A stretch of 64,000 bases of DNA from an uncultured Pseudomonadales bacterium (GTDB taxonomy: Bacteria; Patescibacteriota; Microgenomatia; UBA1400; MFAQ01). The notes beneath the pieces are model-generated. The model did no database searches. It had not been told where the DNA came from and saw nothing but the letters and a program-made list of their open reading frames with translations. The stretch lies in the NCBI GenBank assembly GCA_964564895.1, contig CAZMCB010000001.1, forward strand, positions 19,689-83,688. Reading direction: 5' to 3'. Below, piece by piece: positions 1 through 64,000 of the stretch (positions within the stretch are counted from its first letter, which is position 1; the number at the start of each line of letters is the position of its first letter). Made by a program: the position numbers and the translations under genes.

Positions 1-603
1 ACAGGCGACACCCATACTGATTTTGCGGGTAACGAAATGGAGTGAACGACGAGGAGACTCGTGATTGAAAAGAATTCCTCCGCAGACAAACATGCCATAA
101 GATTTTCTGTAACAGTCAATCATCATATGAGCATAGGCTTTGGCAATTCCGTAAGGATTGTTGGCAAAGATTGGAGTTTGTTCGTTAGCATGCTCAATTC
201 CTTCGACACCACCAAGGATTTCGCGGGAAGTGGCTTGATATACACGAGCCTTGGGGCAGAAACGTCTGACAGACTCAAAAACACGAAGAGGCCCTATTCC
301 TGTGACTTCAGCGGTGTAGAAAGGATGAGTCCAACTATCAGCAGGAACACTTTGTGCGGCGAAGTTGTAAACCTCATCTGGCTGATATTTGATCATCAAG
401 TGATCAAGAGATGATTGATCAACAAGATCGGCGGCTTCAAGAATTATTTTACCTTTGAGATGTTCGATATTGGGCTGATGAGTAGAGGTGGAGCGGCGAA
501 TTGTACCTACAATTTTGTATCCTTTTTCGAGAAGAAAGTCCGCGAGGTAGCTTCCATCTTGAGAAGTAACTCCGACAATTAGTGCAACTTTGGGTTGGGT
601 CAT
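1..603 (-). CDS. gmd: GDP-mannose 4,6-dehydratase. Only the N-terminal ~200 aa are in the window; the gene runs off the window start.
   Basis: My own minus-strand translation from the ATG at 601-603 reads MTQPKVALIVGVTSQDGSYLADFLLEKGYKIVGTIRR...QPDEVYNFAAQS...ILFNHESPRR. The Rossmann GxxGxxG, the QPDE(I/V)YNL-like motif and LFNHESPRR are diagnostic of GMD. It is absent from the ORF track because the frame is open to position 1. The + strand ORF 61..414 is its antisense shadow. Confidence 0.8.
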   Translation of the reverse strand, partial: MTQPKVALIVGVTSQDGSYLADFLLEKGYKIVGTIRRSTSTHQPNIEHLKGKIILEAADLVDQSSLDHLMIKYQPDEVYNFAAQSVPADSWTHPFYTAEVTGIGPLRVFESVRRFCPKARVYQATSREILGGVEGIEHANEQTPIFANNPYGIAKAYAHMMIDCYRKSYGMFVCGGILFNHESPRRSLHFVTRKISMGVAC

Positions 604-627
604 GGTTTATTTTACTAGATATTTTTA

Positions 628-1374
628 TTAATTCTTCTTCATTACAGAGAATATGGAGATTCCAAAAGGGTAATTTATCTGCTTCATCAGCCTTATTTCA
701 TTTACAAAAATGAAAGTTAGTAGTTTATTGATTATATTATTGTTCGCGACGTCATAATTGAGGTTTGAATCAAAGTCTCCTAGCTTGGAAAATGGTTTAA
801 TTCGACTTAAAAGACGTATTGCAACGATAGCTGGAGATAGAAAGAAATTGAAATAACTAATTTTCTCGATTTTCATTTTAGTTTTTTTTGCAAGAGACCT
901 AACCTTTCTTCGGACATAGCGTCGGAAGTGCCCTTGTTGAGCATCGTGCTCTGACCAAAGAAACTGAAGAGCAGGAACGGTCATGATAATTTTACCGTTT
1001 CTTTTCAATACTCTTTTTGCTTCACCAAGAACACTGGAATCATCCTTAATGTGTTCAAGCACATCAAGAAGTAAAACATAATCAAAAGTTTCATCTTTAA
1101 AGGGAAGTGTTTCAGCTTCAACTCTGATTATTTGTTTATGTCCTCGATTCTTTGCATATTCAACGGCCACAGATGAACTATCTACACCGTACAAATCAGG
1201 GTGAGAGAGATGATTATTGAGAAATGTAAGCGTCTCTCCTGTTCCACAACCAATATCTAGTATTTTAAGATTTCTTTCTTTTTTTATTTCTTGTCGGAGA
1301 ATCTCCCGACGACCTTCCCACCACCAGTGATGTTTTTCGATTCGATTGAAATGTCCTAATAATTTTTCGTCCAT
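628..1374 (-). CDS. Class I SAM-dependent methyltransferase
   Basis: Has the LDIGCGTGETL glycine-rich SAM motif and an acidic loop (GVDSS). It is about 250 aa, typical of Methyltransf_11/23 proteins. Confidence 0.75.
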   Translation of the reverse strand: MDEKLLGHFNRIEKHHWWWEGRREILRQEIKKERNLKILDIGCGTGETLTFLNNHLSHPDLYGVDSSSVAVEYAKNRGHKQIIRVEAETLPFKDETFDYVLLLDVLEHIKDDSSVLGEAKRVLKRNGKIIMTVPALQFLWSEHDAQQGHFRRYVRRKVRSLAKKTKMKIEKISYFNFFLSPAIVAIRLLSRIKPFSKLGDFDSNLNYDVANNNIINKLLTFIFVNEIRLMKQINYPFGISIFSVMKKN

Positions 1375-1412
1375 TTGTTGATTTTAAACATATCTATATC
1401 AATATAACCACC

Positions 1413-2615
1413 CTATTTGGCTACATGCCACCAAGGTTGAATCCAAAAATATGAAACCATGAGGCAAAATTGGAATACTAACAAAAGTAGGATAACTCGA
1501 AAATGCCACTTCCCAAATTTGGAAAATTCGGATAAACCTAGCGCATATGGAACAATAACACCAAAGGTATAAAAAGCTTTTAGAACATAGTCATAAGGAA
1601 TATAGATACTGTATTGAACTAAAGAGGCTAGGGCGATAAATAGATATGAAAATAATATTAGCCCTGTCACCTTATCTATTATAAGTAATTTGATTAGGCC
1701 AATAAAAGACATGATCAACAAAGGAAAGCCCAACAGCCAGAGACTGAAGGCTTTTTTGTGAAAAGGCACTACAGGAACTGTGGAGTATTCTCCATCATGC
1801 CAAAGCGTATTCCACAGACCTCCAGAAAATGAATACTTTCGAGCGTTAAAGATGTCTGCTTTAAAAATCCAGTCCAATCTAGTAAAAAACACAAAATCTC
1901 TTTTGGCTCCCTCACCGCCCATTGTGGCAATGTCTGGAGCCATAACCAATGGTTTCCCATACAAAGAGTTGTTTCTAATTAGAATTGGTGAAATCAATAA
2001 AAGAATAAACGCACCGGACAAGAATATTGTTTTAATTTTCTGAGTAAGAGAAATATTGCGATTTAGGAATATTGCCAAAATTAGAATTGGAATCAAGCTT
2101 AGCGATGTATATTTGGTATAGAAACCAAGGGCAATTACTAAAGTGGAGAAAAATATTTGTTTGAAAAAATCTCTCGGTTTTATTAATTTTGGAATGTTTA
2201 AAATCAGAAACAAAGAAAGGACAATCCACATACCAGACATAAACTCATTGGTGATTTGGGGAGCGAGATAGTTGGCCATAGGTAAACTCAAGAGGGCTAA
2301 GGTGGAAACTGTAGATTTGGAGAGTCTATAAACAATAATGGAAAGTGCAATAAAGACAAAAAAATTAAGAAATTGAGGATTTACGGAAACTGATTCAAAA
2401 ACAGCGCCAGCAGTATAGTACAGAGGGGTCTGAAGAAATTCCCAGTCTTGATATCCATTTGGTAAATTGTGATTGGTAGCTATCCAAGAAATATATGCTT
2501 GATGATCTAGCCCATCGAAACCAAAATCTGGATTGTAATGGGTGATATTGTGGAAATGAAAAACCAGAGAAACTAGAAAGATGAAACCAAGGAATATCTT
2601 CTCAATTTTCTTCAT
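1413..2615 (-). CDS. Polytopic membrane protein, putative GT-C glycosyltransferase (PMT_2/ArnT-like)
   Basis: 400 aa with more than 10 hydrophobic helices and no soluble domain. Its architecture matches the neighbouring ArnT/PMT-like genes. Confidence 0.45.
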   Translation of the reverse strand: MKKIEKIFLGFIFLVSLVFHFHNITHYNPDFGFDGLDHQAYISWIATNHNLPNGYQDWEFLQTPLYYTAGAVFESVSVNPQFLNFFVFIALSIIVYRLSKSTVSTLALLSLPMANYLAPQITNEFMSGMWIVLSLFLILNIPKLIKPRDFFKQIFFSTLVIALGFYTKYTSLSLIPILILAIFLNRNISLTQKIKTIFLSGAFILLLISPILIRNNSLYGKPLVMAPDIATMGGEGAKRDFVFFTRLDWIFKADIFNARKYSFSGGLWNTLWHDGEYSTVPVVPFHKKAFSLWLLGFPLLIMSFIGLIKLLIIDKVTGLILFSYLFIALASLVQYSIYIPYDYVLKAFYTFGVIVPYALGLSEFSKFGKWHFRVILLLLVFQFCLMVSYFWIQPWWHVAK

Positions 2616-2749
2616 GACTAAACAAAGTTAAGGCGATGATATAAAACACAGTAAAACTAATGATTAAAAATATTGTCTCTGGGCGGAGCCCCCTCGCACT
2701 TCGATATCCATAATCAATTCCGGAAAGTACTAAGGCAATAATGAAGGGT

Positions 2750-4285
2750 TTAAATAATTTCATAGAGATAAAAATTATCTTGATTGAGAATAAGCTTTAC
2801 ACCTTTAAGTTTTTCTAGAATCAAACCCTCATTACAGTTCATTGAGTGGTTTGTTATGATGTATTGCGTTTTGTCTGTAATGTTATTTTTAATAGTGTTT
2901 TTTATAATAGCTAATAGTATTTGAGCTTCTGTAACATCTTTTTCAGTAAGTAGCTTTGCATAAGCGACATCTGCAGATTCGTTGTATTCTCCTACCTTTA
3001 CTACTCCACACGCTATGAAATAATCTCCTGCCATAATGGAATAGTCATCGAGATAGTAACTTGCCCAGTAGTAGTTACTGCTCGGAAGTAATAAATAAGA
3101 ACTTTCCTTGGGGGCAAGTTTTTCAATATTTTGATAAAAAGAAACCTCTGTTTCATTTATTAAGACAGGTCCGCGGGATAGAATTCTGGTGTCGGCTGAG
3201 AGATATATAAATAGTAAGGGTAAAACAGAAAGTACTTTATAAATATTTCCTTTTTTAAATAACGATAAAAAGACTGCATAAAAAATAAATGTTGAAAGAG
3301 TGACAAGACCCACAAATCTCTCTGGCAAGAAATTCAAACCGATGAGTGGTTGAAAAGTAAATAATGCACCAATAATGAAAAGCGCCAGGGGTAGAGCAAA
3401 TTTTCTTCGATTTGTTTTAATCTCTTTTCTTTTGATGAATAAGACGATTACAGAAAATAAAAGAAAATATACTAACCAATATTTACCCGTTTCTTCTAAA
3501 AATGTTTTTTGAATTCTTTCGGCCTCATCCCCAAGAATCATAGGTTGAGAGGGAAAGATAATTTTAATTTTTTCAGCAATTGGGCTGATGATGGAAGAGG
3601 ATGCCATAGCTGTAAACGGAGGCAAAGATACTGGAAAGTAACGAATTATTTGGCAAAATCCAATTGCACAGGAAATAATTAGGACAATAACGGCCTTCTT
3701 GAGTGTTTTGATTTTGTTTTGATCAAGAATTATTTTGAGTAGAAAATAGAGGCCAACAACCAATCCATACGCCACTGAAGAAAAGTTGTGAACATAGAAT
3801 ATCAATCCCAAAACAAGTCCTAATAATATATTTTTAAAGCGAAATTCTTTACTAGTTTCTATAGCAAAAAAAGCAAACAGAATGATAAAGCTGGTGTAAT
3901 TGGCAAATAACATATATGCATAGCCAAGAAGATATGGAGAAATAATCACTGCTGACGCAAGAGCTACTGCAGTAAGGCGTGACTTGGTCAGATTAGTCAT
4001 TAATTTAGTCAGAAGTATGACGATAATCATGGAAATTATGGTAATAGCCGCGCGATATGCCATCATTGGATCTAAATTAAATATTCTAGAAATAAGTGCG
4101 GGGAAGGCTATCACTAGATAGCGATCTAAGAGGGAATAACTGATAACGTTTGGATTACTAAGGGCAAAATCACGAATGGCAGAAAGATAGAATGGTGTGT
4201 CAAAACCAGGAAGAAAAGGTTTAATCCAGAAAAAATTTATTGAAAGAAGAAATGAAAGAATTATTGGCAGCAAACTAATCACCAT
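2750..4285 (-). CDS. Polytopic membrane protein with a C-terminal extracytoplasmic domain, GT-C-like
   Basis: The ORF-track start at 4408 would overlap the epimerase by 134 nt. The internal Met (MVISLLPIILSF...) at 4285 gives an 11-nt overlap and starts at the first TM helix. Multiple TM helices are followed by a ~170-aa hydrophilic C-terminus. Confidence 0.45.
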   Translation of the reverse strand: MVISLLPIILSFLLSINFFWIKPFLPGFDTPFYLSAIRDFALSNPNVISYSLLDRYLVIAFPALISRIFNLDPMMAYRAAITIISMIIVILLTKLMTNLTKSRLTAVALASAVIISPYLLGYAYMLFANYTSFIILFAFFAIETSKEFRFKNILLGLVLGLIFYVHNFSSVAYGLVVGLYFLLKIILDQNKIKTLKKAVIVLIISCAIGFCQIIRYFPVSLPPFTAMASSSIISPIAEKIKIIFPSQPMILGDEAERIQKTFLEETGKYWLVYFLLFSVIVLFIKRKEIKTNRRKFALPLALFIIGALFTFQPLIGLNFLPERFVGLVTLSTFIFYAVFLSLFKKGNIYKVLSVLPLLFIYLSADTRILSRGPVLINETEVSFYQNIEKLAPKESSYLLLPSSNYYWASYYLDDYSIMAGDYFIACGVVKVGEYNESADVAYAKLLTEKDVTEAQILLAIIKNTIKNNITDKTQYIITNHSMNCNEGLILEKLKGVKLILNQDNFYLYEII

Positions 4286-5255
4286 CTTTACATAATAAAT
4301 TATTCGCCCAGCTTCGATTTTCAAGATACCATTCAACACTATTTTTAATTCCTTCTTCAAAGGATATTGATGGTTCCCATCCGAATAATTCCTTAGCCTT
4401 ATTTCCATTTGCTAAAGTATCTTTCATGTCAGCTTTTGAAAAAGCTTGGTATTCCACATTAGCTTTTTTACCTGAATATTTTTCTATTAAAGTAATTAAA
4501 TCTTTAAGTGAATACGACGCCAAGCCTCCACCCAAGTTGGTTATTTCGTAACCGACAGGTTTTAATGCCGAAATGGTGCCTCTAGCAATATCGTCAACAT
4601 AGGTAAAATCACGGGTTTGTGTCCCGTCGCCATTTACAGTTATCGGTTTGCCTTCAACAATATTATTAATGAATTTGAAAATAACCATATCTGGTCTTCC
4701 TGCCGGACCATAAACAGTGAAATAACGAACAATACTTATATCTAATCCATATAAATAATGATATGTATAAGCCATTACTTCAGCAGATTTTTTTGAAGCT
4801 GCGTATGGTGAAATTGGAGTATTTACGGGTAATGTCTCTAGAAAAGGCATCTCCTGCCCAGCGTATAAGGATGAAGTAGAAGCAAGAACCATTTTTTTGA
4901 CATCATATTTATTCATTAAATCCAATAGGTTTAGGGTTCCGATTGCATTTGTCCTCATATAGACAAAGGGGTCCTTCATGCTATATCTCACTCCTGCTCT
5001 GGCTGCCAAATTAATTACTCCATCAATTTTATTGTTTTTGAATATATTTTCTAAATCTTCGATATTTTCTATATCAATTTTTTCGAACTTAAAATTATTG
5101 TCTTTTTTAAGCAAATTCAAACGATGCTCCTTCAATTTAACATCGTAATAATCATTCATATTATCAACACCCAAGACTGTATCTCCACGCTTTAATAGCT
5201 GCTCACACACCTTGTGTCCAATAAATCCCGAGGAACCCGTGACTAATATATTCAT
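4275..5255 (-). CDS. NAD-dependent nucleotide-sugar epimerase/dehydratase (UDP-glucuronate / UDP-GlcNAc 4-epimerase family)
   Basis: MNILVTGSSGFIGHKVCEQLLKRGDTVLGVDN is an extended-SDR Rossmann motif. The YAASKKSAE YxxxK catalytic motif is present. 326 aa. Confidence 0.8.
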   Translation of the reverse strand: MNILVTGSSGFIGHKVCEQLLKRGDTVLGVDNMNDYYDVKLKEHRLNLLKKDNNFKFEKIDIENIEDLENIFKNNKIDGVINLAARAGVRYSMKDPFVYMRTNAIGTLNLLDLMNKYDVKKMVLASTSSLYAGQEMPFLETLPVNTPISPYAASKKSAEVMAYTYHYLYGLDISIVRYFTVYGPAGRPDMVIFKFINNIVEGKPITVNGDGTQTRDFTYVDDIARGTISALKPVGYEITNLGGGLASYSLKDLITLIEKYSGKKANVEYQAFSKADMKDTLANGNKAKELFGWEPSISFEEGIKNSVEWYLENRSWANNLLCKDGD

Positions 5256-5426
5256 TATTTTTATTATACCTATACTTAAATAGTATACTTATAAAGCTTG
5301 TCGAGTTTGTTTTATTGATAATGCATATATATGTATAAAATTAAATATTGTGTTTTTATGATTTCAATTAAAAAGTGGACCATATCATTTCTTGAATCTA
5401 TTTACACGAAGGTTTTTAAGCGCGAA
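5256..5426. promoter_or_regulatory. Divergent promoter region between the epimerase operon (-) and the flippase operon (+)
   Basis: A 170-nt, very AT-rich spacer with several TATAAT/TATACT-like hexamers between divergently transcribed genes. Exact -35/-10 boxes are not assignable. Confidence 0.3.
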
Positions 5427-6662
5427 ATGAGTGATAATGTGCGTACGTTTCTTAAAAATTTGTCTTTGTCAATTTTTGGAGGTGGAATCGCATCGGCTGC
5501 AATGATGGTAATAAATATTGGGGCAGGTAGAATGTTGGGTCCAAGTGGGTATGGAGAATATGGACTAGTTTTAGCAATCAGTCAAATTTTTATGGTTCCA
5601 ATAGTGCTTGGGCTTGATGTATCAGGAGTAAGGGCAATATCTTCCGTTGAATCAAGAAGGGAGAAATCATTAAATATTTCCAGTGTATTTCACTTTGTTG
5701 GTTTATCGTCTATAGTATTTATTTTTTTATATTTAGTGTTCAATAATTTTGTTTCAAAAATACTCAACATTGACAGAACAATTTTATTAATGTCGGCCAT
5801 ATATGCAATTGTTACTTCTTTTAAGGTAATTTCAGATAGTTTTGTACGAGCACTTTTACTATTTAAAACTCAGTTGTTTGCACGACTTGTGGAAATGATT
5901 ACAATCATCTTTCTTTTTTCGTTGTTCTTTTTAGTAATCGAAAAACAAAATTATACGAATTATTTAATTTCAATATTGGGAGGTTCAATTGTGTTTTGTA
6001 TTATATTGCTAGCTAAGTACTTACCATACCTAACTAAGTTTGATTTTAGTTACTTAAAAAAACAACTCTCATATAGTTCGGTTTTGTTGTTTGGTTCAAT
6101 CTTAGGAGCAATATATAATGTTCTAGAAAAAATGGTAATAGCTAGGTACTTGAGTGTTTTTGACTTAGGGATATATCTTGCATATTTCACCGCATCCTTA
6201 GGAATGATTGCACAATTAACACAAATGTTTGTTAATGTATTTTTTCCTTCAATAACAAAATCATCTAACAGATCTGTTTATTTAAAAGTTGAGAAAATTT
6301 TTCTTTCTCTATTTTTTCCGACATTATTATTAATATCTTGTCTGATATTTATAATAATCAATTTTTTTGGCAAAACATATGGAATGAATTATTATTATGT
6401 ATTCGGTTTTGGATTATTGGCTACAATGCAAATGCTGTTAGGAATAAATTACTATATTTTTGCTTCTTCCTCAAAAAAACTATATTTTACATATGTTAAA
6501 TATGTTGGTGCAATAAATTTTCTCCAGTTACTTGCATACGGAGCTATGATTTATTTTGATATCGTTTCAATTGATTTAATAATAGTAGTGTCAATGGTAA
6601 ATTCAATCGCAAACATTACATTTCAAAGGAAACTGATAATGAATAAGGATATTATGATATAA
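5427..6662 (+). CDS. Wzx-like oligosaccharide flippase (MOP superfamily, polysaccharide biosynthesis protein)
   Basis: The N-terminus NLSLSIFGGGIASAAMMVINIGAGRMLGPSGYGEYGLV matches the Wzx N-terminal pattern (...ARxLGPxxxGxY). About 12 TM helices. Start taken at M33 (5427); the ORF track extends to 5331. Confidence 0.65.
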   Translation: MSDNVRTFLKNLSLSIFGGGIASAAMMVINIGAGRMLGPSGYGEYGLVLAISQIFMVPIVLGLDVSGVRAISSVESRREKSLNISSVFHFVGLSSIVFIFLYLVFNNFVSKILNIDRTILLMSAIYAIVTSFKVISDSFVRALLLFKTQLFARLVEMITIIFLFSLFFLVIEKQNYTNYLISILGGSIVFCIILLAKYLPYLTKFDFSYLKKQLSYSSVLLFGSILGAIYNVLEKMVIARYLSVFDLGIYLAYFTASLGMIAQLTQMFVNVFFPSITKSSNRSVYLKVEKIFLSLFFPTLLLISCLIFIIINFFGKTYGMNYYYVFGFGLLATMQMLLGINYYIFASSSKKLYFTYVKYVGAINFLQLLAYGAMIYFDIVSIDLIIVVSMVNSIANITFQRKLIMNKDIMI

Positions 6663-6755
6663 AATCGACTATATTGTTGCATGGCAATCTTATATGGTGC
6701 GTGTTAACATTAAAATAAATTATCACCAAGTATCATCTTATTTACCTGAAAAGAT

Positions 6756-7940
6756 ATGAATGTAAAAAAATGTAGAATGTGTGGATCCCCAAAACTTTGG
6801 GAATGGCTTGATCTTGGGCACCATCCACATTCAGACCAGTTTAAAACATCGAGAGACGTAGAAGAAAAGACATACCCTCTTCGAGTTTGTTTATGTGAGA
6901 AATGTGGATTAAATCAACTAACCTATGTAGTTGACAAAGAAGAACTTTATGCAAAAGACTACCTCTATGAATCTTCAATTACGAAGACTGGTAATTCTCA
7001 CTGGGAAGAATTCGCCGATACAGTCCTAAAGAATGTAAAAATGCCTAAAGATGGTCTCGTTGTAGATATAGGTTCAAATGATGGTACTTTATTAATGAAG
7101 TTCCAAGCAAGAGGGTTTGATGTTCTTGGAATAGATCCCACTCCAGAGGTTACCGAAATTGCTAGGCAAAGAGGCATCCCAACAATCACAGATTTTTTCT
7201 GTAAACGAGCGATAAAGGGAAAGAGAGCAGAGTTGGTCGTTGGCACAAATGTATTTGCCCACATAGACGATTTGGATGATTTTATGAATAACATTTCTGA
7301 ATTACTTACCGAAAACGGAACCTTTGTTTTCGAATCTCCGTATTTTGCCGACTTTCTAGAAGGACTCGAGTATGACACGGTGTACCATCAGCATCTTTCC
7401 TATCTTTCGCTTAAGCCAATTATAAATTTTTTAGAAAAGTTTCAGATGGAGGTTTACGACATTAATCGCGTTGGTATTCATGGGGGTGGCTTCCGTGTAT
7501 ACATTTCTCGAAAGGGCAAATTTGAGATTAAACCAATTGTTAAGGAGATGATAGAATCGGAGTGTTGGGATAAAAAAGATCTAATTAAATTTGCAGTTGA
7601 TACAAAGAATAATCGTGATGAGCTTTTTGAATTAATATATTCGTTATACAAACAACGAAAAACAATAGCTGTGGTATCTACTCCAGCAAAAGGTATGACT
7701 CTACTTAATTACAGTGGAATTGGAAAATATATATCATTTGCAACCGACAAATCAAAATTAAAACAAGGAAGATATACTCCAGGAACTTTTATTAAAATAT
7801 ATTCTGATGATGAGCTATTAAGTAAACAGCCAGATTATGCATTACTCTTGGCTTGGAACTTTGGTAAGGAAATTATTAAAAATAATAGTGGTTATAAGGG
7901 AAAATGGATTATCCCGATACCAAAAATACAAATAATATGA
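6756..7940 (+). CDS. NDP-hexose C-methyltransferase (TylCIII/TcaB9-like; Methyltransf_13/14 architecture)
   Basis: N-terminal Cys4 zinc ribbon (CRMCGS...CEKCG), a central SAM motif VVDIGSNDGTLL, and a C-terminal ~120-aa domain. This three-part layout is typical of sugar C-3/C-methyltransferases. Confidence 0.65.
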   Translation: MNVKKCRMCGSPKLWEWLDLGHHPHSDQFKTSRDVEEKTYPLRVCLCEKCGLNQLTYVVDKEELYAKDYLYESSITKTGNSHWEEFADTVLKNVKMPKDGLVVDIGSNDGTLLMKFQARGFDVLGIDPTPEVTEIARQRGIPTITDFFCKRAIKGKRAELVVGTNVFAHIDDLDDFMNNISELLTENGTFVFESPYFADFLEGLEYDTVYHQHLSYLSLKPIINFLEKFQMEVYDINRVGIHGGGFRVYISRKGKFEIKPIVKEMIESECWDKKDLIKFAVDTKNNRDELFELIYSLYKQRKTIAVVSTPAKGMTLLNYSGIGKYISFATDKSKLKQGRYTPGTFIKIYSDDELLSKQPDYALLLAWNFGKEIIKNNSGYKGKWIIPIPKIQII

Positions 7941-8281
7941 TACATAAAACCCATAAGGATGAAAGAGGTATTATAAAAGATTTAATAATTGGAAAAGAAG
8001 GTGCGGCTACATATATTACGTTTGAAAAAGGAGCTATTCGAGGGAATCATCTTCATAAAAAAACCGTTCAGCATGATTTCATTCTTTCCGGAAGACTTAT
8101 ATGTTATTCAGGAGATAAAAAAATTATTCTTAAATCAGGAGAAATTATTACCCACTTAGCCAATGTTCCTCATGCTTATAAAGCTATTGAAAAATCAGAA
8201 ATGATCTCTTTAGTAAGTGGTCCAAGAAAAGGTGAAGATTATTCTCTAGATATGTACAAATTAATAAAACCTTTGGTATGA
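7937..8281 (+). CDS. Cupin-fold NDP-4-keto-6-deoxyhexose 3,4-ketoisomerase (FdtA/QdtA/WxcM-like)
   Basis: About 114 aa with RGNHLHKK, which matches the RGxHAH(K) active-site motif of FdtA-type isomerases. ATGA start/stop overlaps link it to the upstream and downstream genes. Confidence 0.55.
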   Translation: MIHKTHKDERGIIKDLIIGKEGAATYITFEKGAIRGNHLHKKTVQHDFILSGRLICYSGDKKIILKSGEIITHLANVPHAYKAIEKSEMISLVSGPRKGEDYSLDMYKLIKPLV

Positions 8282-9279: not shown

Positions 9280-9315
9280 CAATTTAATATTTGCTTTGAA
9301 TCGCATAAAAATCAA

Positions 9316-10365: not shown

Positions 10366-11132
10366 ATATTTATAAGGACTATGCAGAGTATTACGACCTT
10401 CTATATGCGGATAAAGATTATTTAAAAGAAGCATGTTTTGTCAGCAAAGTATTGTCCAAATACTCAAAGGGGAAAGGGACAATTTTGGAACTTGGTTGCG
10501 GTACTGGGATCCACGCGACCGAGTTAGTTAAAAGAGGATTTCTTGTGGACGGAATTGATTCTAGTAAGGTCATGTTGGAGAGTGCAAAAAACAGGTTCGA
10601 TTACCTACCAACTGATTTGAAAAAAAACCTTTCTTTTTCTTATGGGGATATTCGAAAATATCGAAACAAAAAAAAATATGACTCAGTTGTTTCTCTATTT
10701 CATGTGACTAGCTACATGACTACTAACAAACATTTGAACGCAATGTTTGATACGGCAAATTTTCATCTCAATAAAAACGGAATATTTATGTTCGATTGTT
10801 GGTATGGTCCTGCAGTTCTCACCATTAGACCGAAAAAGAAAAATAAAATAATTGAAAATGAAAAAATTAAAATTGTCAGAACTGCTATACCAGAAATGCG
10901 TCCCAATGAAAACATTGTGGATGTAAATTATGATATTAATTTTATTGATAAACATACTAAAACAATTAATAAGATAAAAGAAATTCATTCTGTAAGATAC
11001 TTCTTTATGCCAGAAATTATCGAAGTATTAAAATTTAACAATTTCGATCTCATAGACGCCTGTGAACTAATTTCTAAAAAAAAACCAGGCTTTGAAACCT
11101 GGGGGGTCTGTTTTATAGCAAAAAAATCATGA
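10362..11132 (+). CDS. Class I SAM-dependent methyltransferase
   Basis: ILELGCGTGIHATELVKRGFLVDGIDSS contains the SAM motif I and an acidic post-I residue. Confidence 0.7.
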   Translation: MNIYKDYAEYYDLLYADKDYLKEACFVSKVLSKYSKGKGTILELGCGTGIHATELVKRGFLVDGIDSSKVMLESAKNRFDYLPTDLKKNLSFSYGDIRKYRNKKKYDSVVSLFHVTSYMTTNKHLNAMFDTANFHLNKNGIFMFDCWYGPAVLTIRPKKKNKIIENEKIKIVRTAIPEMRPNENIVDVNYDINFIDKHTKTINKIKEIHSVRYFFMPEIIEVLKFNNFDLIDACELISKKKPGFETWGVCFIAKKS

Positions 11133-11875: not shown

Positions 11876-11889
11876 TTATAATCCAATAA

Positions 11890-57019: not shown

Positions 57020-58697
57020 GTGGAGCTACGGCAATAACTAAACTCAATAATAACGAAATAAAAGTAATGATGTTTGCTACTTCTCTCGTGCGGGTATTTT
57101 CAAAGTACCCTTGGACTAGTGTAATACCTTTATCAAAAGTAAGTGTGATTTCTCCATGGTCTTCCCCAATCTGATATACCGTGGGTGTAACACTGCTGTT
57201 TAAATACACTTTCCAGTCTGGAAAGGCTGAGATGGGGAATGAAACCGTTGCCTGACCAAAAGAAACATCTACGTCTGCTGAAAAATAAGCTGATCTTTTC
57301 TGGAAATTTTTTACTTCTGCTAATCCGGAAAGTACTACTGGATTGCTTGGAGCTATCTTTTCGGGAACGGAGACCATAGATAAAGGACGATAATCAAAGA
57401 AGGCAGATTTTTGGCTTTGTTCGAACACTTTTCCTGATAGATAAGTTTCGTCTGTAGCACTTGGACTAGACTTATCAAACTTGAAGAAACGAAAATTTAG
57501 AAATAACAAAGCAAAAACGAGAAGTAGGGTGAGTAGTTTTTGAGTTTTTTGTCCGAATGAGCTAATAAAAATGGCCAAAACTACAGCGGAGCTAAGCGCA
57601 ACTAAGCCTAAAAATCTCCAAGGGAACTGGACGAAAGATAGAGGTGCAATTAGCTCCCAAATAGCGATAGATCTTATGGTTGTGAGGAAAATAGCAAAAA
57701 GGGCAAAACAAAAAAATGTAATTAAGAGAATTTTGGAGGTTTTTGAAAGTGACTTTCTTTTGATAAATAAAAATATCGGTGTAACGACTAAAGCTAACGT
57801 CTGAACTATACCAACAGCAAAAGAGATCTTGTCGTTTGGACCAAACTCACTGGCACGATATCCCCAACTTTGTTTGATAAACAGTTGAGATAGAGTAGCA
57901 AAATGAGCTCGAAAATCAAAATAACCACTAGTAAGGAATCCGGTATCTACCAAGTTATTTTCGAAAATTACTGGTAGTAAGAAAAATGAGGCAATACCTA
58001 AACCAAGCACAGCAGAACTAAAAAGTAGTGAAAAAGATTTGATTTTTTGTTTGTTTATAAAAATCATGATGATGGCAAATACGGCGATGAAGGGGGAAGA
58101 AATTAAAGTGGTGATGTTGTGAGTACTAAGGAAAAGACCTAGGATTAGCGAGAGAAAAGCAAGATTAATTTTGGTTTTGTTGATAATTAATTTTGTGATT
58201 CCGAATAGAACTAACGGCAATAGTGCCAGAGCGAAATTTTCGGCGAGAGCTCCCCTTACAAAAATTTCAAGAGCACGAAAAGGAACCAAAATATAGGCAA
58301 CCCCTCCAATGAAGCTTGGCAGAATTGGAACAAACTGTGAAAGGAATATAAACATGGCGATTCCAGCAAGAGCTATCGAAATAAACATGACTATTTTGAC
58401 TGAATCAATTAGAGAAAAACCAAGATTGTTAAAAATTGCACCGACGTAATATGGAGTGGCAGAGTAATAGTTAAACATGGGTTGACCGTATCCATAACTC
58501 ATGTCTGGGGACCAACGACAAGGAATTTGACCATCATTTAGGCAACGTTTCATTTCGTAAAGTCGCATAACTTGTAAGTCGTCGTGCATAGAGAAAAAGC
58601 CTGGTTTGAAAATATTCCAAGAAACTAAAACGGAAATTAATAGCAGGCCGATGATGGCAATTAACTTTTTATTCATGTTTTCTTTTGAAGATGGCAT
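56997..58697 (-). CDS. Polytopic membrane protein, same family (paralog B)
   Basis: FFSMHDDLQVMRLYEMKRCLNDGQIPCRWSPDMSYGYGQPMFNYYSATPYYVGAIFN. Confidence 0.5.
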   Translation of the reverse strand: MPSSKENMNKKLIAIIGLLLISVLVSWNIFKPGFFSMHDDLQVMRLYEMKRCLNDGQIPCRWSPDMSYGYGQPMFNYYSATPYYVGAIFNNLGFSLIDSVKIVMFISIALAGIAMFIFLSQFVPILPSFIGGVAYILVPFRALEIFVRGALAENFALALLPLVLFGITKLIINKTKINLAFLSLILGLFLSTHNITTLISSPFIAVFAIIMIFINKQKIKSFSLLFSSAVLGLGIASFFLLPVIFENNLVDTGFLTSGYFDFRAHFATLSQLFIKQSWGYRASEFGPNDKISFAVGIVQTLALVVTPIFLFIKRKSLSKTSKILLITFFCFALFAIFLTTIRSIAIWELIAPLSFVQFPWRFLGLVALSSAVVLAIFISSFGQKTQKLLTLLLVFALLFLNFRFFKFDKSSPSATDETYLSGKVFEQSQKSAFFDYRPLSMVSVPEKIAPSNPVVLSGLAEVKNFQKRSAYFSADVDVSFGQATVSFPISAFPDWKVYLNSSVTPTVYQIGEDHGEITLTFDKGITLVQGYFENTRTREVANIITFISLLLSLVIAVAPHDKKNTR

Positions 58698-60405
58698 AAA
58701 GGCAAAGTGGAAGAAAAATAATTGTCAGGATATTTCCAACAAGACGAACTGGTGAGTTTGTAAGACGAGCATAGATTTGGTGTTCTCCTTTTGGAACTTT
58801 GAAAGTAATTAAGCCTAACTCATTGTTGTGATCTATGGCAACCTTTTTGCCGTCGACTTTGACTACCCAACCTGGAAAATCAAAAAGAGATAGAGTAACA
58901 GTGGTGTCTTCTGAGTTTTGTAGTGTAAAGCGTTGCCAGTTTGTCCCTTTAGTGAAGAAAAGAAAATCAGCAAAACCATTGGATACTACCGGAAGGTTTG
59001 GTGCGGGGCTGGTGGGTGGATGAGAAGCAAAAATTGGGAGGTAGTCGTAGATACTTGTGGTCATCTGTTTGTCCCAAGTGATTCCGGAGTATTTTTCTTC
59101 AATTGTTATATTGAACCATTTTGAAGGAGTGAAAAAAGAGAGATTTAGAAGCACTAAAAAGATAATCGTTGTTCCAATGATTATTAACGATTGCTTTGTC
59201 TTTTGACCTACTAGGATAGAGCCTGCGATTACGGCAAAAAAAGTATTTGCCAGTACTAAAAAGCGCCATGGGAATTGAAGGTATACAAGAGGAGTGGCTA
59301 TTGTCCAGATAAAGGAAGATTTTTCGTGGGTCATGAAGGAAGTAAAAAGACCAAGAATAAAAAATGTTAGAACAATAGAGAATATTTTTTTATCTTTTCG
59401 AGCGTATTTGAGAAAAGCAATAACTAAAGCTGTAAGTACAAAAATAATGATAATAGGCCCAAAGAAAAAAGATAGATCATCATGAGGACCAATAACTGAT
59501 GAGCCAACTCCCCAAAAAGTTGAGGTAAATAGCTGACTGATGGATACGAAATGTGCCCGATAATCAAAGTATCCTCCTAACATTGTTTCTGTGTGAGCAA
59601 ATTGTTTTTCCAGTACTACGGGCAGGAAGAAGAAAGCAGCAATAAGTCCTCCCCAGACTAGTGATAGACCAAATTTGAATATATGAACTAGCGTTGTTTT
59701 GTTGATTCTGAGCTTGTCGTATTGAAAAAGAAAAACTAAAAACAATATCACTAATGCTGGAGAAAAAATGAGGGTGCTTATATTGTGACTTAGTATTAGT
59801 AAACCGAAAGAAAGAGCTAGTAAAGCTGATTTTTTTATGGTGAACTCTTTGGCTAGATTGTATGAAGCAAGAATTACAAGAGGAATAAACACAAAGGCCC
59901 ATGACTCACCCATAGCACCACGAGAGTAAAGATCGGATGCTCGATATGGAGCATAAGCATAGATTAGCGCCGATAATACTCCACCCCACCTACCCCAAAG
60001 TCTATTTCCGAGCAAAAACATAGCTAAATTTCCAAGTATCAGGGAAAGAATAAAACCCAATTTGACTGAATCAAAAACACCAACCCCCAAAAGATTCGCA
60101 GCGGCCATGACGTAATAACTAAATGGTCCGTAGTAATTAAACTGAGGATAACCGTAGGCATAACCCATGCTAGGTACCCACCGACAAGGAATCTGAAAAT
60201 CTTTGATGCACTTGACCATCTCGGTCACACGGATTGCTTGCATATCATCGTGCATGGCGAATGTACCGGGCCTAAAAAGAGAGGTGACAGTAGGAAGAGT
60301 AAGAACAACAACTAAGAAAGGCAATAACCATTGCTTGTTTTTTAGGAAAAAATTTTTTAAGCGATCCTTAATACTCATAGAATTGCAGAGCCTCCGCGGT
60401 GCCAT
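58669..60405 (-). CDS. Polytopic membrane protein, same family (paralog C)
   Basis: TFAMHDDMQAIRVTEMVKCIKDFQIPCRWVPSMGYAYGYPQFNYYGPFSYYVMAAAN. Confidence 0.5.
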   Translation of the reverse strand: MAPRRLCNSMSIKDRLKNFFLKNKQWLLPFLVVVLTLPTVTSLFRPGTFAMHDDMQAIRVTEMVKCIKDFQIPCRWVPSMGYAYGYPQFNYYGPFSYYVMAAANLLGVGVFDSVKLGFILSLILGNLAMFLLGNRLWGRWGGVLSALIYAYAPYRASDLYSRGAMGESWAFVFIPLVILASYNLAKEFTIKKSALLALSFGLLILSHNISTLIFSPALVILFLVFLFQYDKLRINKTTLVHIFKFGLSLVWGGLIAAFFFLPVVLEKQFAHTETMLGGYFDYRAHFVSISQLFTSTFWGVGSSVIGPHDDLSFFFGPIIIIFVLTALVIAFLKYARKDKKIFSIVLTFFILGLFTSFMTHEKSSFIWTIATPLVYLQFPWRFLVLANTFFAVIAGSILVGQKTKQSLIIIGTTIIFLVLLNLSFFTPSKWFNITIEEKYSGITWDKQMTTSIYDYLPIFASHPPTSPAPNLPVVSNGFADFLFFTKGTNWQRFTLQNSEDTTVTLSLFDFPGWVVKVDGKKVAIDHNNELGLITFKVPKGEHQIYARLTNSPVRLVGNILTIIFLPLCLYAIFKRKHE

Positions 60406-61867
60406 CTATCCTAGCCGGCTTGGGATATTCTTTGATTAATTTCAAACGTTCCACAATTGAAGGCTGCATGTGATTTCTGGATTTGTTGATTACAAAGTAT
60501 CTTTTGTTTTTTGGATCTGTGTTTACTAAACCTTCAGGAATAGTGATAATCGAAGGATTGGAACCGACGATGGTGATATTGCTGTGACCGTTGGTGTAGA
60601 TTTGAAGGCCATCAGGAAGAGTACCAAAAAAACCTTCAGTAAAAACCACTACGTTCTCCCCTTTTGATTCTTGTTCGATTAAATATGCTGCAACTTCTTT
60701 TTGGCCCCAGCCTGCAGTCCATTCCTCAAGATACCCATTGCGCATATCGAAGGAAAGAGGGGCTTTGGTTGGTGTAAAAACACTAAGAATAGAAAAAACT
60801 AATGGCACAACTACAAGAATAAACGACGAAAGTTTAATTAGAATCCCTTTTCGAGTAACTAACCAGTTTAGGCCGATACTAATAATTGGTACAAGAGGTA
60901 AAACAGCAAACAATGCGTAACGACTGGTGTAAACCTTTGCAATGGAACCTTGGGCGACAAGAGGGAGAAGTGAAACCAACAGTAGAAAGAGCGATGTCAA
61001 ACGGGTTTTTTTGGGAATGAAGCCAAAAATTAGAGCAAGTAATAGTGTTGGTGAAAAAAGTAACCATAACCAGTTTATGGTTTTTGCTAAATTATTTAGA
61101 AGAGGGTCTAGTGGATGCCTTAGGATCTCTTGCCAAGTAAATAAATAGTCTTGATTTCGAGCTCCAATCATTTGGAATGCCGGCCCAAGACGAAGAATGC
61201 CATACATCAGCTGAGAAATTACGATAACTGCAAACAAACCTAGACAGAGATTAACGAAAGATTTTAGTTTGTCAGCTTTGGGGCGAAAAAAGAAAACTAA
61301 AGCGACCGCGAGCCAAGCGTAAAAGAAAATCGCGGGCGATTTTGTAAGAAGCCCTCCACCAAGAGCAAATCCTAAAATCATGGCGTGGTCGAGTTTTCTG
61401 GTTTTGGCAAAAAGAGCAGAAAGGCCAAGCGACCAAACACCAAACATGGCTAGCATTGAGTCTGCGAGTGCCATCCGATCGAAAAACACTGAAAATGGAA
61501 GTACCGAATACGTAAGAAGAGTAAGAGCGACAACAAGAAAATTTCCAAAAAGAACATACGAGAGAAAACCTAGACCTAACAGAGTACCAAAGCCTGTAGC
61601 TACGGAAACAAGGCGACCAGCAACCAATGGATCATCTGTTAGTTTAAAAAATGGAATAGTGGCCCACATAAAGAGTGGTTGTTTACCATCTGTTTGGGGT
61701 AAAAATCTAAGGCTCGCTTCGTTTTTCATGACCTGAGACCAGCGAATATAGATGGCTTCATCAACGAAAACAGGAATATTATTTAGCTTTGAGAGTCTTA
61801 AAAAAAAGAACAAGCCAAAAGCCAGAAGAGAAATAAGAATTATCCAGAATGTTTTATTTTTGATCAT
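60368..61867 (-). CDS. ArnT/PMT_2-like GT-C glycosyltransferase
   Basis: NNIPVFVDEAIYIRWSQ is a DE first-loop motif. The N-terminal 370 aa are polytopic and a C-terminal ~120-aa soluble domain follows. A 14-nt overlap links it to the upstream DPM1-like GT2. Confidence 0.6.
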   Translation of the reverse strand: MIKNKTFWIILISLLAFGLFFFLRLSKLNNIPVFVDEAIYIRWSQVMKNEASLRFLPQTDGKQPLFMWATIPFFKLTDDPLVAGRLVSVATGFGTLLGLGFLSYVLFGNFLVVALTLLTYSVLPFSVFFDRMALADSMLAMFGVWSLGLSALFAKTRKLDHAMILGFALGGGLLTKSPAIFFYAWLAVALVFFFRPKADKLKSFVNLCLGLFAVIVISQLMYGILRLGPAFQMIGARNQDYLFTWQEILRHPLDPLLNNLAKTINWLWLLFSPTLLLALIFGFIPKKTRLTSLFLLLVSLLPLVAQGSIAKVYTSRYALFAVLPLVPIISIGLNWLVTRKGILIKLSSFILVVVPLVFSILSVFTPTKAPLSFDMRNGYLEEWTAGWGQKEVAAYLIEQESKGENVVVFTEGFFGTLPDGLQIYTNGHSNITIVGSNPSIITIPEGLVNTDPKNKRYFVINKSRNHMQPSIVERLKLIKEYPKPARIDGTAEALQFYEY

Positions 61868-62615
61868 ACAATCCTTTTAGATCATTAATTTTGACGCTTA
61901 AAATTTGTTTTAACATGTCAGTTGATTCCTTGAAAAACCTTTTGTCCTTCCCTGTAGAGGTGTCTTCGTCTTTCCACTCAACATCGACTTCCTTTAAACG
62001 ATTGCCGTATTTTTCGGCTAAGAAAAGTAGTTCGACATCAAACGCAGAAACCGACCATCCCTTGGAGATTTTTTTATCTGACATAACGGAAAGTTTGGGA
62101 AAAATTTTCTTGGCGACTGCCGTATTAAAAGCTTTGAAGCCACACTGTGTATCGACAACATCACGGAGTAAGAATAAACCTCGTACAAAGCGAAAACCCC
62201 ACGAAGTGAGCTGACGGTACCAAGGAAAGTTGGCTCTGGCTTTGCCACGAGAACCAAAAACAACGGTGTAGCCTTCATCGAACCAAGGGAGTAGTTTTTC
62301 TACTTCTTTGAGAGGAGTTGATTGATCCATGTCGGTAAAAAGGACGATTTCACCTTTGGCAGCTTTTATGCCGGCGTAAACTGCTTTGGCCTTGCCACCA
62401 TGTGGATTAGGAAGGACTCTAAACCCCGAATGACTTCTGGCGAAAGTTTGCGCAATCTCTCGGCTGCCATCGGTAGAACCATCGTCACTGATGATCACTT
62501 CGTAGTCGTAGCTAACTTTTTTGAGATATGTGTAAACTTCTTCAAGAACTCCCCTATCAAGATTTTCTTTTTCGTTGAAGTTTGGGATGACAATCGATAG
62601 TTTTATTGCTGACAT
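61854..62615 (-). CDS. GT2 polyprenol-phosphate glycosyltransferase (DPM1/ArnC/GtrB-like)
   Basis: LSIVIPNFNEKENL...VIISDDGSTDGS...FTDMDQSTP are DPM1/ArnC-type motifs. 253 aa, soluble. Confidence 0.8.
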   Translation of the reverse strand: MSAIKLSIVIPNFNEKENLDRGVLEEVYTYLKKVSYDYEVIISDDGSTDGSREIAQTFARSHSGFRVLPNPHGGKAKAVYAGIKAAKGEIVLFTDMDQSTPLKEVEKLLPWFDEGYTVVFGSRGKARANFPWYRQLTSWGFRFVRGLFLLRDVVDTQCGFKAFNTAVAKKIFPKLSVMSDKKISKGWSVSAFDVELLFLAEKYGNRLKEVDVEWKDEDTSTGKDKRFFKESTDMLKQILSVKINDLKGLYDQK

Positions 62616-62618
62616 AGT

Positions 62619-63158
62619 TTATTTGAATACCTGGGCCTTGTAATATTTTAACTCATCTATCGACTCGAGAATGTCATCGTGAGCTCGATGAGTTTCTTCT
62701 TTGTGAAAGGCAGGAAGGGATGGATACCAACGAAGAGCTAGTTCTTTGATGGTGGTCACATCAATAATGCGATAGTGTACAAAGGCAGCAAGGCGAGGCA
62801 TATGTAGTCTTAAAAATTCACGATCAATATGAACTGAGTTTCCAGCTAATAAAGCCGTATTTGAAGGGCTGATTTTTTTGAGAAATTGGAGAGTTTGTTC
62901 CTCGGCTTCAGCTAAAGTGATTTTTGAGTCGTGTATTTCGTTTAGAAGGCCTGACTCGGCAAAGTGTTCTTGATTCCATGCAATCATGTTATTTAGAACT
63001 GAGCTTGGCTGGTTGATAACCAGATCAGGACCTTCGGCTAAAACATTTAATTCTCCGTCTGTCACTATCGTCGCAATCTCAACGATCTGATCTTTTTCAG
63101 GATTGAGCCCTGTCATTTCTAGATCTATCCAGATTAATTTTCCGTTGGTACTGCTCAT
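62619..63158 (-). CDS. orn: Oligoribonuclease (DEDDh 3'-5' exoribonuclease)
   Basis: LIWIDLEMTGLNPEKDQIVEIATIVTD is Exo motif I (DxE). GNSVHIDREFL is Exo II. YRIIDVTTIKEL...HRAHDDI is Exo III with the catalytic His. 179 aa. Confidence 0.85.
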   Translation of the reverse strand: MSSTNGKLIWIDLEMTGLNPEKDQIVEIATIVTDGELNVLAEGPDLVINQPSSVLNNMIAWNQEHFAESGLLNEIHDSKITLAEAEEQTLQFLKKISPSNTALLAGNSVHIDREFLRLHMPRLAAFVHYRIIDVTTIKELALRWYPSLPAFHKEETHRAHDDILESIDELKYYKAQVFK

Positions 63159-64000
63159 CTTGTGTGTTCTAGTTTGTATATTTTTAAGTAATCAATTTGC
63201 CATGTAGAAACAACGTGTGATGGTCCAAAAACTGCTATCTGCCAGTCTGGATTACCTTCAGGTTGACATTTTTCTCCGTCTTCACAGATGACGAAAAGCT
63301 GATCAACAATCTTGTCTTCCCCTCTTACTAGCTTGGCCTGTTTGTTTTCTAGGAAGTAGCGATAGGATTCATCGTAGTTATTTTTGGAAATCAGTCCAAA
63401 GTTAAACTCCTGCCCTTGGGATTCTTGAATAATAAGGTCGGCAGCTTGCTCTGTCCTTCTTAGCTGGTAATTGGGATTGCCGAAAGCTGGGCTGGTGCGA
63501 AGAGCATTGAAAACAAGAATAGCAAAGAGAGTGATAAATACCCATTTAAAAACCGGATTCATCTTAACTACCGACGAGAAGAGTGCTCCAGAAAGTAGAA
63601 AAACAGCTGGGTATACCAGTCCTAAGTAGTGAATATATATTGGCTGATTGTAAAGACTCAAGCCTAAAATGGTAAATAATATCCAAGAAGTAATAATCTG
63701 GATGGATGGTTTTTTGCGGTTTATCAGAATATAAAACGCTGAAATTGCACAAAGGATAATAGTAACGATCAATTTTGGTTTTTCATTTCCGGTGAGGAGA
63801 GAACTTTGGGTGAAAGAGAAAAGAGTAAAGGGCTTTGTGAGTGAGTCGGCGAGATTGAATACTCCGGACTTGGCTGAGAGCATCGCCTTAAGTGCAGAGA
63901 GATTCATACCAGAGTGCTTAAGATCAAAGAGAACCAAAGGAGACATGAAAGCTAAGAATATTAAAACGGCAAATATCGTGTGTTTTGTAAAAGATTTTGC
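63155..64000 (-). CDS. Membrane protein with a C-terminal soluble domain. The 5' end runs off the window end.
   Basis: The frame stays open upstream of the listed Met at 63946 (...HTIFAVLIFLAFMSPLVLF, inside a TM helix), so the gene probably starts beyond 64000. It has at least 4 TM helices and then a ~110-aa hydrophilic C-terminus. Confidence 0.45.
   Translation of the reverse strand, partial: AKSFTKHTIFAVLIFLAFMSPLVLFDLKHSGMNLSALKAMLSAKSGVFNLADSLTKPFTLFSFTQSSLLTGNEKPKLIVTIILCAISAFYILINRKKPSIQIITSWILFTILGLSLYNQPIYIHYLGLVYPAVFLLSGALFSSVVKMNPVFKWVFITLFAILVFNALRTSPAFGNPNYQLRRTEQAADLIIQESQGQEFNFGLISKNNYDESYRYFLENKQAKLVRGEDKIVDQLFVICEDGEKCQPEGNPDWQIAVFGPSHVVSTWQIDYLKIYKLEHTR

Follow-up and report, generated by a model that had tools for sequence, protein, structure and literature searches.

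A 64,000-nucleotide stretch of DNA from an uncultured bacterium of the Microgenomatia (assembly GCA_964564895.1, contig CAZMCB010000001.1, positions 19,689 to 83,688; called the window throughout) was found to encode 18 supported and 3 possible membrane-bound glycosyltransferases of the GT-C type next to a large set of further glycan genes. We regard it as likely, at a probability of roughly 0.6, that these genes serve to build a complex surface glycan step by step outside the cytoplasm, with polyprenyl-phosphate sugars as donors, and that the window represents most of a supercluster typical for the Microgenomates. The sugar donors of GT-C enzymes are linked to lipid phosphates and are used at the outer face of the membrane. 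A total of 50 open reading frames (ORFs, given o numbers below) of at least 150 amino acids were present, closely packed and with frequent overlaps, and 24 of these 50 were polytopic in a hydropathy scan. The 18 supported GT-C genes make up 46.5% of the bases of the window, and 54% when the three possible ones are added. An earlier note, made from the sequence alone, had counted about 21 GT-C-like membrane proteins and had described nearly every gene as glycan-related. Both statements held, the former by Pfam, NCBIfam, BLAST, hhalign and fold comparisons, the latter with a HigB/HigA toxin-antitoxin pair and an RNase_T exonuclease as the only non-glycan genes.

Pfam scans were run on all ORFs of the window, with the gathering threshold as criterion. 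Using this cutoff, 11 proteins (o20, o28-o31, o34, o36, o44-o47) were assigned to GT-C families. The PMT_2 family was represented by o20 (22284-23777, minus strand; 40.3 bits versus a threshold of 26.1; FNFDEE after the first transmembrane (TM) segment, TM1), by the tandem paralogs o28, o29 and o30 (31967-36868, minus; 35-45 bits, mutual identity 28-33%, motifs DEAxxGYNA and DYKPPLY) and by o47 (60368-61867, minus; 33.9 bits). GT87 was matched by o31 (36869-38119, minus; 28.3 bits versus a threshold of 25) and by the GT87/PIG-U-like o36 (43430-45310, plus; 37.6 bits), and YfhO by o34 (39838-42117, plus; 54.9 bits). A second tandem triplet of paralogs, o44, o45 and o46 (55313-60405, minus; 30-58 bits, mutual identity 27-35%, HDD...PCRW motif), belongs to PTPS_related, a member of the GT-C clan CL0111 (PMC7801869).

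Seven further GT-C enzymes were supported by other evidence. Matches to GT-C families of Pfam remained below the threshold for o23, o35 and o16, and none was obtained for o2, o3, o21, o38, o42 and o50. The divergent PMT_2-type proteins o35 (42089-43429, plus; PMT_2 19 bits) and o38 (46373-47818, minus; FIWDES motif) join o20 by BLAST (o35 to o20 with an E-value of 1e-14; o38 linked to o35, o20 and o28). Comparing the o20/o35/o38 family with o28-o30 by hhalign gave a probability of 97.5%, and the PTPS trio matched these proteins at 95.6%. The frame of o50 (63155-64000, minus) is open to base 64000 at the right window edge; it is not a protein of 263 amino acids, but the C-terminal part of an o35/o38-type enzyme, as seen by BLAST to o35 and by LVLFDLKH, the mid-region motif of o35, o38 and o20. 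Its homologs in relatives are annotated as PMT/PMT_2. The protein o26 (29966-31120, plus) falls into the MptA/B-type mannosyltransferase family (TIGR03459, E 1e-8; PF26314 in a homolog of 94% identity). Among the seven, support is weakest for o23 (27049-28185, minus), a probable GT-C with an NFDGLHY motif and a PMT_2 score of 24.3 bits versus 26.1 (E 4e-5). For the two largest Pfam-negative proteins, o42 and o21, the GT-C fold was found in predicted three-dimensional structures.

All 21 candidates showed 6-15 TM segments by a crude hydropathy method, with o50 cut at the window edge; save for this one, all GT-C ORFs are intact and of full length. An Asp/Glu motif after TM1, which the earlier note had named as a mark of these enzymes, was observed in essentially all candidates; in the PMT_2, PTPS and YfhO types it takes the form of DE, DD or HDD-type motifs at a distance of 5-15 residues from TM1, and such short motifs are of low specificity. 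A transporter or permease identity of the membrane ORFs was rejected, as only the two Wzx proteins and the acyltransferase match non-GT-C membrane families; the assignment to GT-C-type enzymes was borne out.

The remaining three candidates are o2 (1413-2615, minus; 400 amino acids, at least 8 TM helices), o3 (2750-4285, minus; about 12 TM segments and a C-terminal TPR region with a weak Fis1_TPR_C match) and o16 (17333-19246, minus; 637 amino acids, 13 TM helices, weak DUF6541 and DUF6798 matches). Using in-house PMT_2-type profiles, hhalign probabilities of 71-86% were obtained for them, colinear over the catalytic N-terminal region, compared to 62% for a reversed-sequence decoy and at most 1.1% for the Wzx and acyltransferase controls. 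In detail, o2 reached 71-85%, colinear from the N-terminus and with FGFDGLDH after TM1; o3 reached 73% to PMT2b, 57% to PTPS and 45% to YfhO; o16 reached 86% to PMT2a, in an alignment that places its EWD on the Asp of loop 1. None of the three had a match above noise in Pfam, NCBIfam or the PDB. Searching the PDB sequences with o42, o21, o16, o2 and o3 by phmmer yielded noise only, and hhalign with shallow in-window alignments did not place o2, o3, o16, o21 or o42. The protein o2 could also be a divergent Wzy polymerase.

Two GT-C families, those of o21 and o42, are not annotated by Pfam. By its fold, o21 (23789-25975, minus) is predicted to be a GT-C enzyme of a rare family; scans of 25 members returned no Pfam family, D414 is invariant among them, and the best structural match is yeast Pmt4. 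Residues ~68-255 form an inserted PA14-like, lectin-like beta domain. The sole distant (50%) full-length o21 homolog found by a word-indexed search lies in locus L003 (jgi 3300046703 Ga0494758_0000027, 1-22307), where its neighbours encode a serine recombinase and the defence proteins SduA_C and DndB instead of glycan enzymes; because of this neighbourhood the family may be mobile.

The largest protein, o42 (50703-53864, minus), is a fusion of 1053 amino acids without Pfam annotation. A signal anchor is followed by an extracytoplasmic DUF3863-like (beta/alpha)7-barrel (~25-480), a GT-C TM domain (~485-915) and a C-terminal globular domain, which resembles that of AglB-S2. Structural comparison of the GT-C domain gave scores of 15.9 for AftA (431 residues), 15.9 for ALG12, 15.3 for ArnT, 15.1 for STT3B and 14.6 for PglB. 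Invariant residues are R72, D74, E102, R132 and D160 in the barrel, and G534, G536, G539, N541, H543, D544 and H548, around a GHD core, in the first loop of the TM domain. The barrel holds no conserved His and no Asp-His-His metal triad of the CE4 type, and a canonical CE4 deacetylase was rejected for the lack of an invariant His. A canonical oligosaccharyltransferase was likewise rejected, as no ORF of at least 150 amino acids contains a WWDYG-like motif and no STT3 Pfam match was obtained. The gene o42 overlaps by 8 bases with o43 (53857-55368, minus), the second Wzx-type flippase of the MOP superfamily in the window (Polysacc_synt_3, E 6e-50). In related loci the gene next to the o42 homolog on its upstream side encoded Wzx in 57 of 57 cases, and the one next to it downstream a GT2 of the o41 type in 56 of 60. 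Two adjacent ORFs matching o42, which could be duplicated or split copies, occur in L041, L047, L068, L073 and L085. The gene o41 is one of three GT2 genes (o39, o40, o41; 47800-50701, minus; Pfam), and its best PDB matches are GmaR (E 9e-19) and SunS, for which reason a GtrB-type donor synthase was rejected for this position. The operon segment Wzx(o43)-o42-GT2(o41) is the invariant heart of the system, in which o42 would most likely take the substrate flipped by Wzx.

Two other GT2 enzymes look like makers of the polyprenyl-phosphate sugar donors for the GT-C enzymes. The best PDB matches of o48 (61854-62615, minus) are the archaeal DPMS 5mlz (E 3e-16), ArnC and GtrB. For o19 (21619-22287, minus) the best NCBIfam matches are PpgS (full length, E 6e-20) and AglJ; all synthase matches stay below the NCBIfam equivalog cut-offs. 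Each of the two genes lies directly upstream of a PMT_2 gene (o47 and o20, respectively), o19 overlaps o20 by 4 bases, and the o48-o47 adjacency was seen in 36 of 48 loci. The other GT2 proteins resemble ordinary elongating enzymes or GmaR/SunS. No GtrA-family match was found in the window; flippase candidates for these donors are the MOP protein o43 and a small DUF2304 membrane protein (20391-20738, minus). The latter has 115 amino acids, lies between the GT4 gene o17 and o18, one gene beyond o19, and is kept in the close relative L006; it may act as a small flippase or as a partner of a lipid-linked sugar.

A comparison with other genomes of the same lineage, which the earlier note had proposed, revealed a conserved backbone and the invariant Wzx-o42-GT2 core, both absent from that note. 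The nearest relatives are Microgenomates/Woesebacteria of the candidate phyla radiation (CPR), and the closest genome match is Microgenomates group bacterium GW2011_GWA2_44_7, with 79% identity to o45. Using o42 as the anchor of a metagenome scan, more than 499 relatives were obtained, and 80 loci were retained. The 30 loci with a length of 20 kb or more carried 4-10 GT-C-like genes per 23 kb (mean 6.8, 0.30 per kb), compared to 0.28-0.33 per kb for the window. The backbone order was GT2 (o19-type) - PMT_2-type (o50) - RNase_T - GT2 (o48) - PMT_2 (o47) - one to three PTPS - Wzx - o42 - GT2 - GT2 - GT2 - GT4 - variable GT-Cs, in which the GT4 o37 (45307-46410, minus; Glycos_transf_1) has homologs in 48 related loci. 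Because GT-C density and backbone order recur in this way, the hyper-dense island is a trait of the lineage, constant in its core and variable at its periphery. In GT-C density the window by far exceeds ordinary O-antigen or capsule loci, as the earlier note had stressed; this density is not peculiar to the window, however, given the 30 related loci. Nor is it entirely unprecedented, since the mycobacterial emb/aft cell-wall cluster comes close to it, with a slightly lower number of GT-C genes per length (about 6 in about 30 kb).

Relatives at 79-95% identity were colinear with the window and differed by whole genes. In two loci at 79% (L002 and L009; ~20177-21551) the YfhO gene o34 is missing, and an extra PMT_2 protein of 381 amino acids is encoded between the o47 and o46 homologs instead. 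The 92-98% identical L006 lacks HigBA and, between its o23 and o21 homologs (8861-12190), also the O-acyltransferase o22 (25996-27039, minus; Acyl_transf_3, E 7e-40). The presence or absence of o22 is a strain-level difference with a possible effect on glycan acylation. The HigB(Gp49)/HigA(HTH_3) pair (28268-28924, plus; E 5e-15 and 8e-15), which sits between the GT4 gene o25 (28902-29927, minus; Glycos_transf_1) and o23, is, given its absence from so close a relative, a recent insertion. Within genes, divergence was mosaic. Residues ~200-450 of o16 share 38-60% identity with the L006 homolog, although the flanks reach 88%. In o36, identity to the L009 homolog falls to 30-58% over the C-terminal half, and o42 shows 80% identity versus 91-97% for its neighbours. 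For o16 and o36 this pattern points to recombination, or to diversifying selection, in the extracytoplasmic parts. The GT-C paralogs, 27-35% identical to each other, each have orthologs at 78-98% identity in relatives. The RNase_T/DnaQ-like exonuclease gene o49 (62619-63158, minus; RNase_T, E 3e-31) is kept between a PMT_2-type GT-C gene and the DPMS-like GT2 gene in 21 related loci.

On this basis we propose the following pathway. Cytoplasmic Leloir enzymes (9 GT2, 4-5 GT4, tailoring enzymes, methyl-, acyl- and amidotransferases) would build lipid-linked precursors, and o19 and o48 would make the polyprenyl-phosphate-monosaccharide donors. The MOP/Wzx proteins o5 and o43 would then carry lipid-linked sugars to the outer face of the membrane, where at least 18 GT-C enzymes of at least 7 subfamilies would add sugars singly, each with its own linkage or acceptor specificity. 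Around the core, strains differ by gains, losses and duplications of GT-C genes and by local divergence within them, which should make the surface glycan strain-specific. The earlier note had thought of combinatorial glycosylation. As two putative donor synthases face many GT-C enzymes in at least 7 subfamilies, a sequential, linkage-specific pathway, as known for lipoarabinomannan (LAM)/arabinogalactan and for the ALG and GPI steps in the lumen of the endoplasmic reticulum, would seem to fit better than combinatorial use. Three-component systems expanded to several GT-C enzymes offer a related analogy. A three-component extracytoplasmic glycosylation system with a MOP-superfamily flippase and a GT-C bearing a carbohydrate-binding module has been described (PMC11127046).

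Several observations weigh against the proposed pathway. Pfam scans of the window ORFs identified neither an initiating phosphoglycosyltransferase (WecA/WbaP-type; Bac_transf, Glycos_transf_4) nor a Wzy_C/O-antigen-ligase (Wzy/WaaL) or Wzz match; genes for Wzy, the initiating transferase and chain-length control may lie outside the window. Two donor-synthase-like GT2 enzymes are few for ~18-21 GT-C enzymes, of which o2, o3 and o16 are possible members, counted apart from the 18, and some of the paralogs could be inactive. The likeness of o41 to GmaR and SunS, which glycosylate proteins or peptides, is a hint that the acceptors are proteins and not a polysaccharide. Finally, the left 13 kb, lower in GC and without homologs in the related loci sampled (which extend just 10 kb from o42), could be an O-antigen-like unit of its own that was acquired horizontally.

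Protein acceptors are central to one alternative, in which the GT-C enzymes mainly act as protein O-glycosyltransferases similar to Pmt or TMTC proteins, with every paralog devoted to its own surface protein (S-layer proteins, pilins or adhesins, for example). PMT_2 is indeed the commonest GT-C family in the window, and both the structural match of o21 to Pmt4 and the matches of the invariant o41 are in line with this idea, as is the C-terminal TPR of o3, a feature of the TMTCs (PMC7801869). We nevertheless consider it unlikely. PMT_2 also spans ArnT-type glycosyltransferases acting on lipids and glycans, and the mycobacterial GT87 and MptA/B enzymes are generally known to work on lipoglycans. 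The characterised YfhO protein takes part in the extracellular glycosylation of teichoic acids (PMC5836110). Moreover, two Wzx proteins, the tailoring genes and a large number of GT2 and GT4 enzymes for elongation imply a lipid-linked oligo- or polysaccharide, and no gene for a candidate acceptor protein was found in the window. Transfer en bloc deserves slightly more credit, yet stays doubtful. Here Wzx would flip a polyprenyl-diphosphate oligosaccharide, o42 would replace Wzy, WaaL or PglB as polymerase, ligase or oligosaccharyltransferase, its barrel would trim or deacetylate the glycan, and the other GT-C enzymes would decorate it. The strict coupling of Wzx and o42, down to the overlap of their genes, and the lack of Wzy and WaaL family matches in the window speak for such a route. 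In turn, o42 matches the monosaccharide-donor enzymes AftA, ALG12 and ArnT as well as or better than oligosaccharyltransferases, it shows neither WWDYG nor an STT3 match, and its barrel without invariant His is not that of a canonical CE4 deacetylase. The lack of an initiating phosphoglycosyltransferase in the window counts against this route as well, and the DPMS-like o48 in the same operon fits a monosaccharide three-component system with a MOP flippase (PMC11127046). In such a system Wzx(o43) would flip a monophosphate-linked sugar for shared use by the five GT-C enzymes of the operon.

A third explanation, which we find improbable, takes the locus as a reservoir of diverged or decaying paralogs, which pressure from phages or hosts would maintain through duplication and recombination, with few of them functional at a time. 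The tandem triplets o28-o30 and o44-o46, the variation in PTPS-type copy number from 1 to 3, the presence or absence of genes between close strains, the mosaic divergence and the toxin-antitoxin pair within the cluster would all be expected from it. Against it stand the intact, full-length ORFs, the retained acidic loop-1 motifs and the tight, operon-like packing with overlapping ends; moreover, old paralogs whose orthologs are this well preserved in relatives point to purifying selection on each copy. Stepwise assembly from polyprenyl-phosphate sugars thus remains our preferred explanation. As a bolder and rather unlikely extension, the Wzx-o42-GT2 triad might constitute a new Microgenomates-specific machine for glycan export and attachment, in which a GT-C fused to an extracytoplasmic domain of glycoside-hydrolase/deacetylase fold takes the place of a Wzy, WaaL or PglB-type transferase. 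A lipid-linked glycan flipped by Wzx would then be remodelled and moved to the cell surface, and the variable GT-C set would write a strain-specific surface code with which these epibiotic, ultra-small bacteria attach to hosts or evade phages.

Comparing the window with known systems, the mycobacterial machinery for lipomannan-LAM and arabinogalactan (Emb, Aft, Mpt, PimE; PpgS, Ppm1) would be similar in that many GT-C enzymes of distinct linkage use few polyprenyl-phosphate sugars outside the membrane. Shared are the MptA/B-family protein o26, the GT87 proteins o31 and o36, the PpgS-like o19 and the clustering of GT-C with GT2 and GT4 genes. In contrast, the host of the window belongs to the CPR and offers no mycolate/arabinogalactan context, PMT_2, PTPS_related and YfhO dominate, Emb, AftA-D and Arabinose_trans matches are missing in the window, and Wzx flippases are present. 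The GT-C density of the window also exceeds that of the emb/aft region. Three-component systems (GtrA/GtrB/GtrV; CsbB/GtcA/YfhO; GT136, Kelly et al., 2024, PMC11127046) encode a synthase GT2, a flippase and a GT-C together. The window resembles them in its synthase-like o48 and o19, a YfhO member, a MOP transporter in the same operon and the lectin-like domain of o21, which recalls the carbohydrate-binding module of GT136. It differs in that its operon holds one synthase, one MOP transporter and five GT-C enzymes instead of one of each, that a GtrA-family flippase is missing and that the synthase-like GT2 proteins possess no C-terminal TM helices. With Wzx/Wzy clusters for O-antigens and capsules the window shares two Wzx proteins, tailoring genes, Leloir glycosyltransferases, an O-acetyltransferase and methyltransferases, and its left 20 kb resembles them. 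However, Wzy, WaaL, Wzz and the initiating transferase were not detected in the window, and almost half of the DNA encodes GT-C enzymes, of which such clusters normally have none or one. Finally, STT3, PglB and AglB have the GT-C fold in common with o42, whose C-terminal domain is like that of AglB-S2 and whose gene adjoins that of a flippase of the type for lipid-linked oligosaccharides; o42 differs by the absence of WWDYG and of an STT3 match and by its additional N-terminal DUF3863-type barrel.

The counts of other glycan genes given in the earlier note agree with the Pfam scans, which identified 9 GT2, 4 GT4 plus 1 weak GT-B-like protein, 2 Wzx and 1 Acyl_transf_3 protein, as well as 5 methyltransferases, AsnB, DegT, an NDP-sugar dehydratase, a cupin, a partial Gmd and a UDPG-dehydrogenase-like protein. 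Small genes added to the inventory are those of the cupin and the DUF2304 protein and a GDP-mannose 4,6-dehydratase gene cut at the left edge (1-603, minus; N-terminal 201 amino acids, frame open to base 1; GDP_Man_Dehyd, E 6e-63). It is followed by an S-adenosylmethionine-dependent methyltransferase gene (o1, 628-1374, minus; Methyltransf_11, E 1e-22). Beyond o2 and o3 lie the genes of an NDP-sugar 4,6-dehydratase/epimerase (o4, 4275-5255, minus; Epimerase, GDP_Man_Dehyd, E 1e-61) and of the first Wzx-type (MOP) flippase (o5, 5331-6662, plus; Polysacc_synt, E 6e-17). A sugar-tailoring block (6756-9279, plus) comprises a C-methyltransferase (6756-7940; Methyltransf_14/13), the cupin (7904-8281; Cupin_2) and a DegT aminotransferase (8278-9279; DegT_DnrJ_EryC1). 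Profile scans of the region 9316-13277 (plus) identified the weak GT-B-like o8, the methyltransferase o9, the TOD1/MUCI70 glycosyltransferase-like o10, the methyltransferase-like o11 and the GT2 o12. On the minus strand, 13280-17329 encodes the GT4 o13, the methyltransferase o14 and the AsnB-type amidotransferase o15 (Glycos_transf_1; Methyltransf_11; Asn_synthase, E 1e-96), and 19243-21614 the GT4 o17, the DUF2304 protein and o18 of the UDP-Glc/GDP-Man dehydrogenase family (Pfam). With 285 amino acids and no C-terminal domain, o18 (20757-21614, minus) is short; as the same length is kept in L006, it is probably a conserved short form and not a pseudogene. Further to the right, o27 (31098-31970, minus; Glycos_transf_2) is a GT2 of the o41/o39 family with 28% identity to o41, and o32 and o33 (38116-39796, minus) are two GT2 proteins with profile matches to rhamnosyltransferase, EpsD and GlfT1-like enzymes.

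The GC content of the window is ~35%, with 28-33% in the left part (1-20000) versus 37-43% further right. No homologs of o2-o11 were detected in any of 87 loci fetched, where the sampled loci reach only 10 kb from o42. The unit in the left part may make a C-methylated amino-deoxy sugar. The only homopolymer runs were four A9 tracts in the AT-rich left part, at 8404 (DegT gene), 10668 and 11076 (methyltransferase gene) and 12785 (GT2 gene), probably a compositional effect; phase variation was set aside, as beyond these four tracts no meaningful tandem repeat occurs in the window. Neither tRNAs nor Rfam matches were found in the window, and a tRNA-flanked or RNA-associated island was rejected for this reason.

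The enzyme families themselves are known. What appears to be undescribed in the searchable literature is the scale and lineage-wide conservation of such a cluster in a group with genomes of about 1 Mb, as well as the Wzx-o42-GT2 core, the fusion architecture of o42 and the PA14-bearing o21 family; a description of GT-C-dense islands in the CPR was not found in the literature searched. CPR/Patescibacteria are thought to live attached to other cells, and to our knowledge almost nothing is known of their surface chemistry. The analysis provides the gene set of the operon o48-o41, two GT-C families outside Pfam (o42, o21) and the Wzx-o42 pair as an anchor for finding such islands in metagenomes. 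A tract of 64 kb of which nearly half encodes GT-C enzymes means that a large share of a minimal genome is spent on the assembly of glycans at the outer face of the membrane, and glycans of this kind could plausibly underlie the recognition of hosts, resistance to phages and the stability of the envelope.

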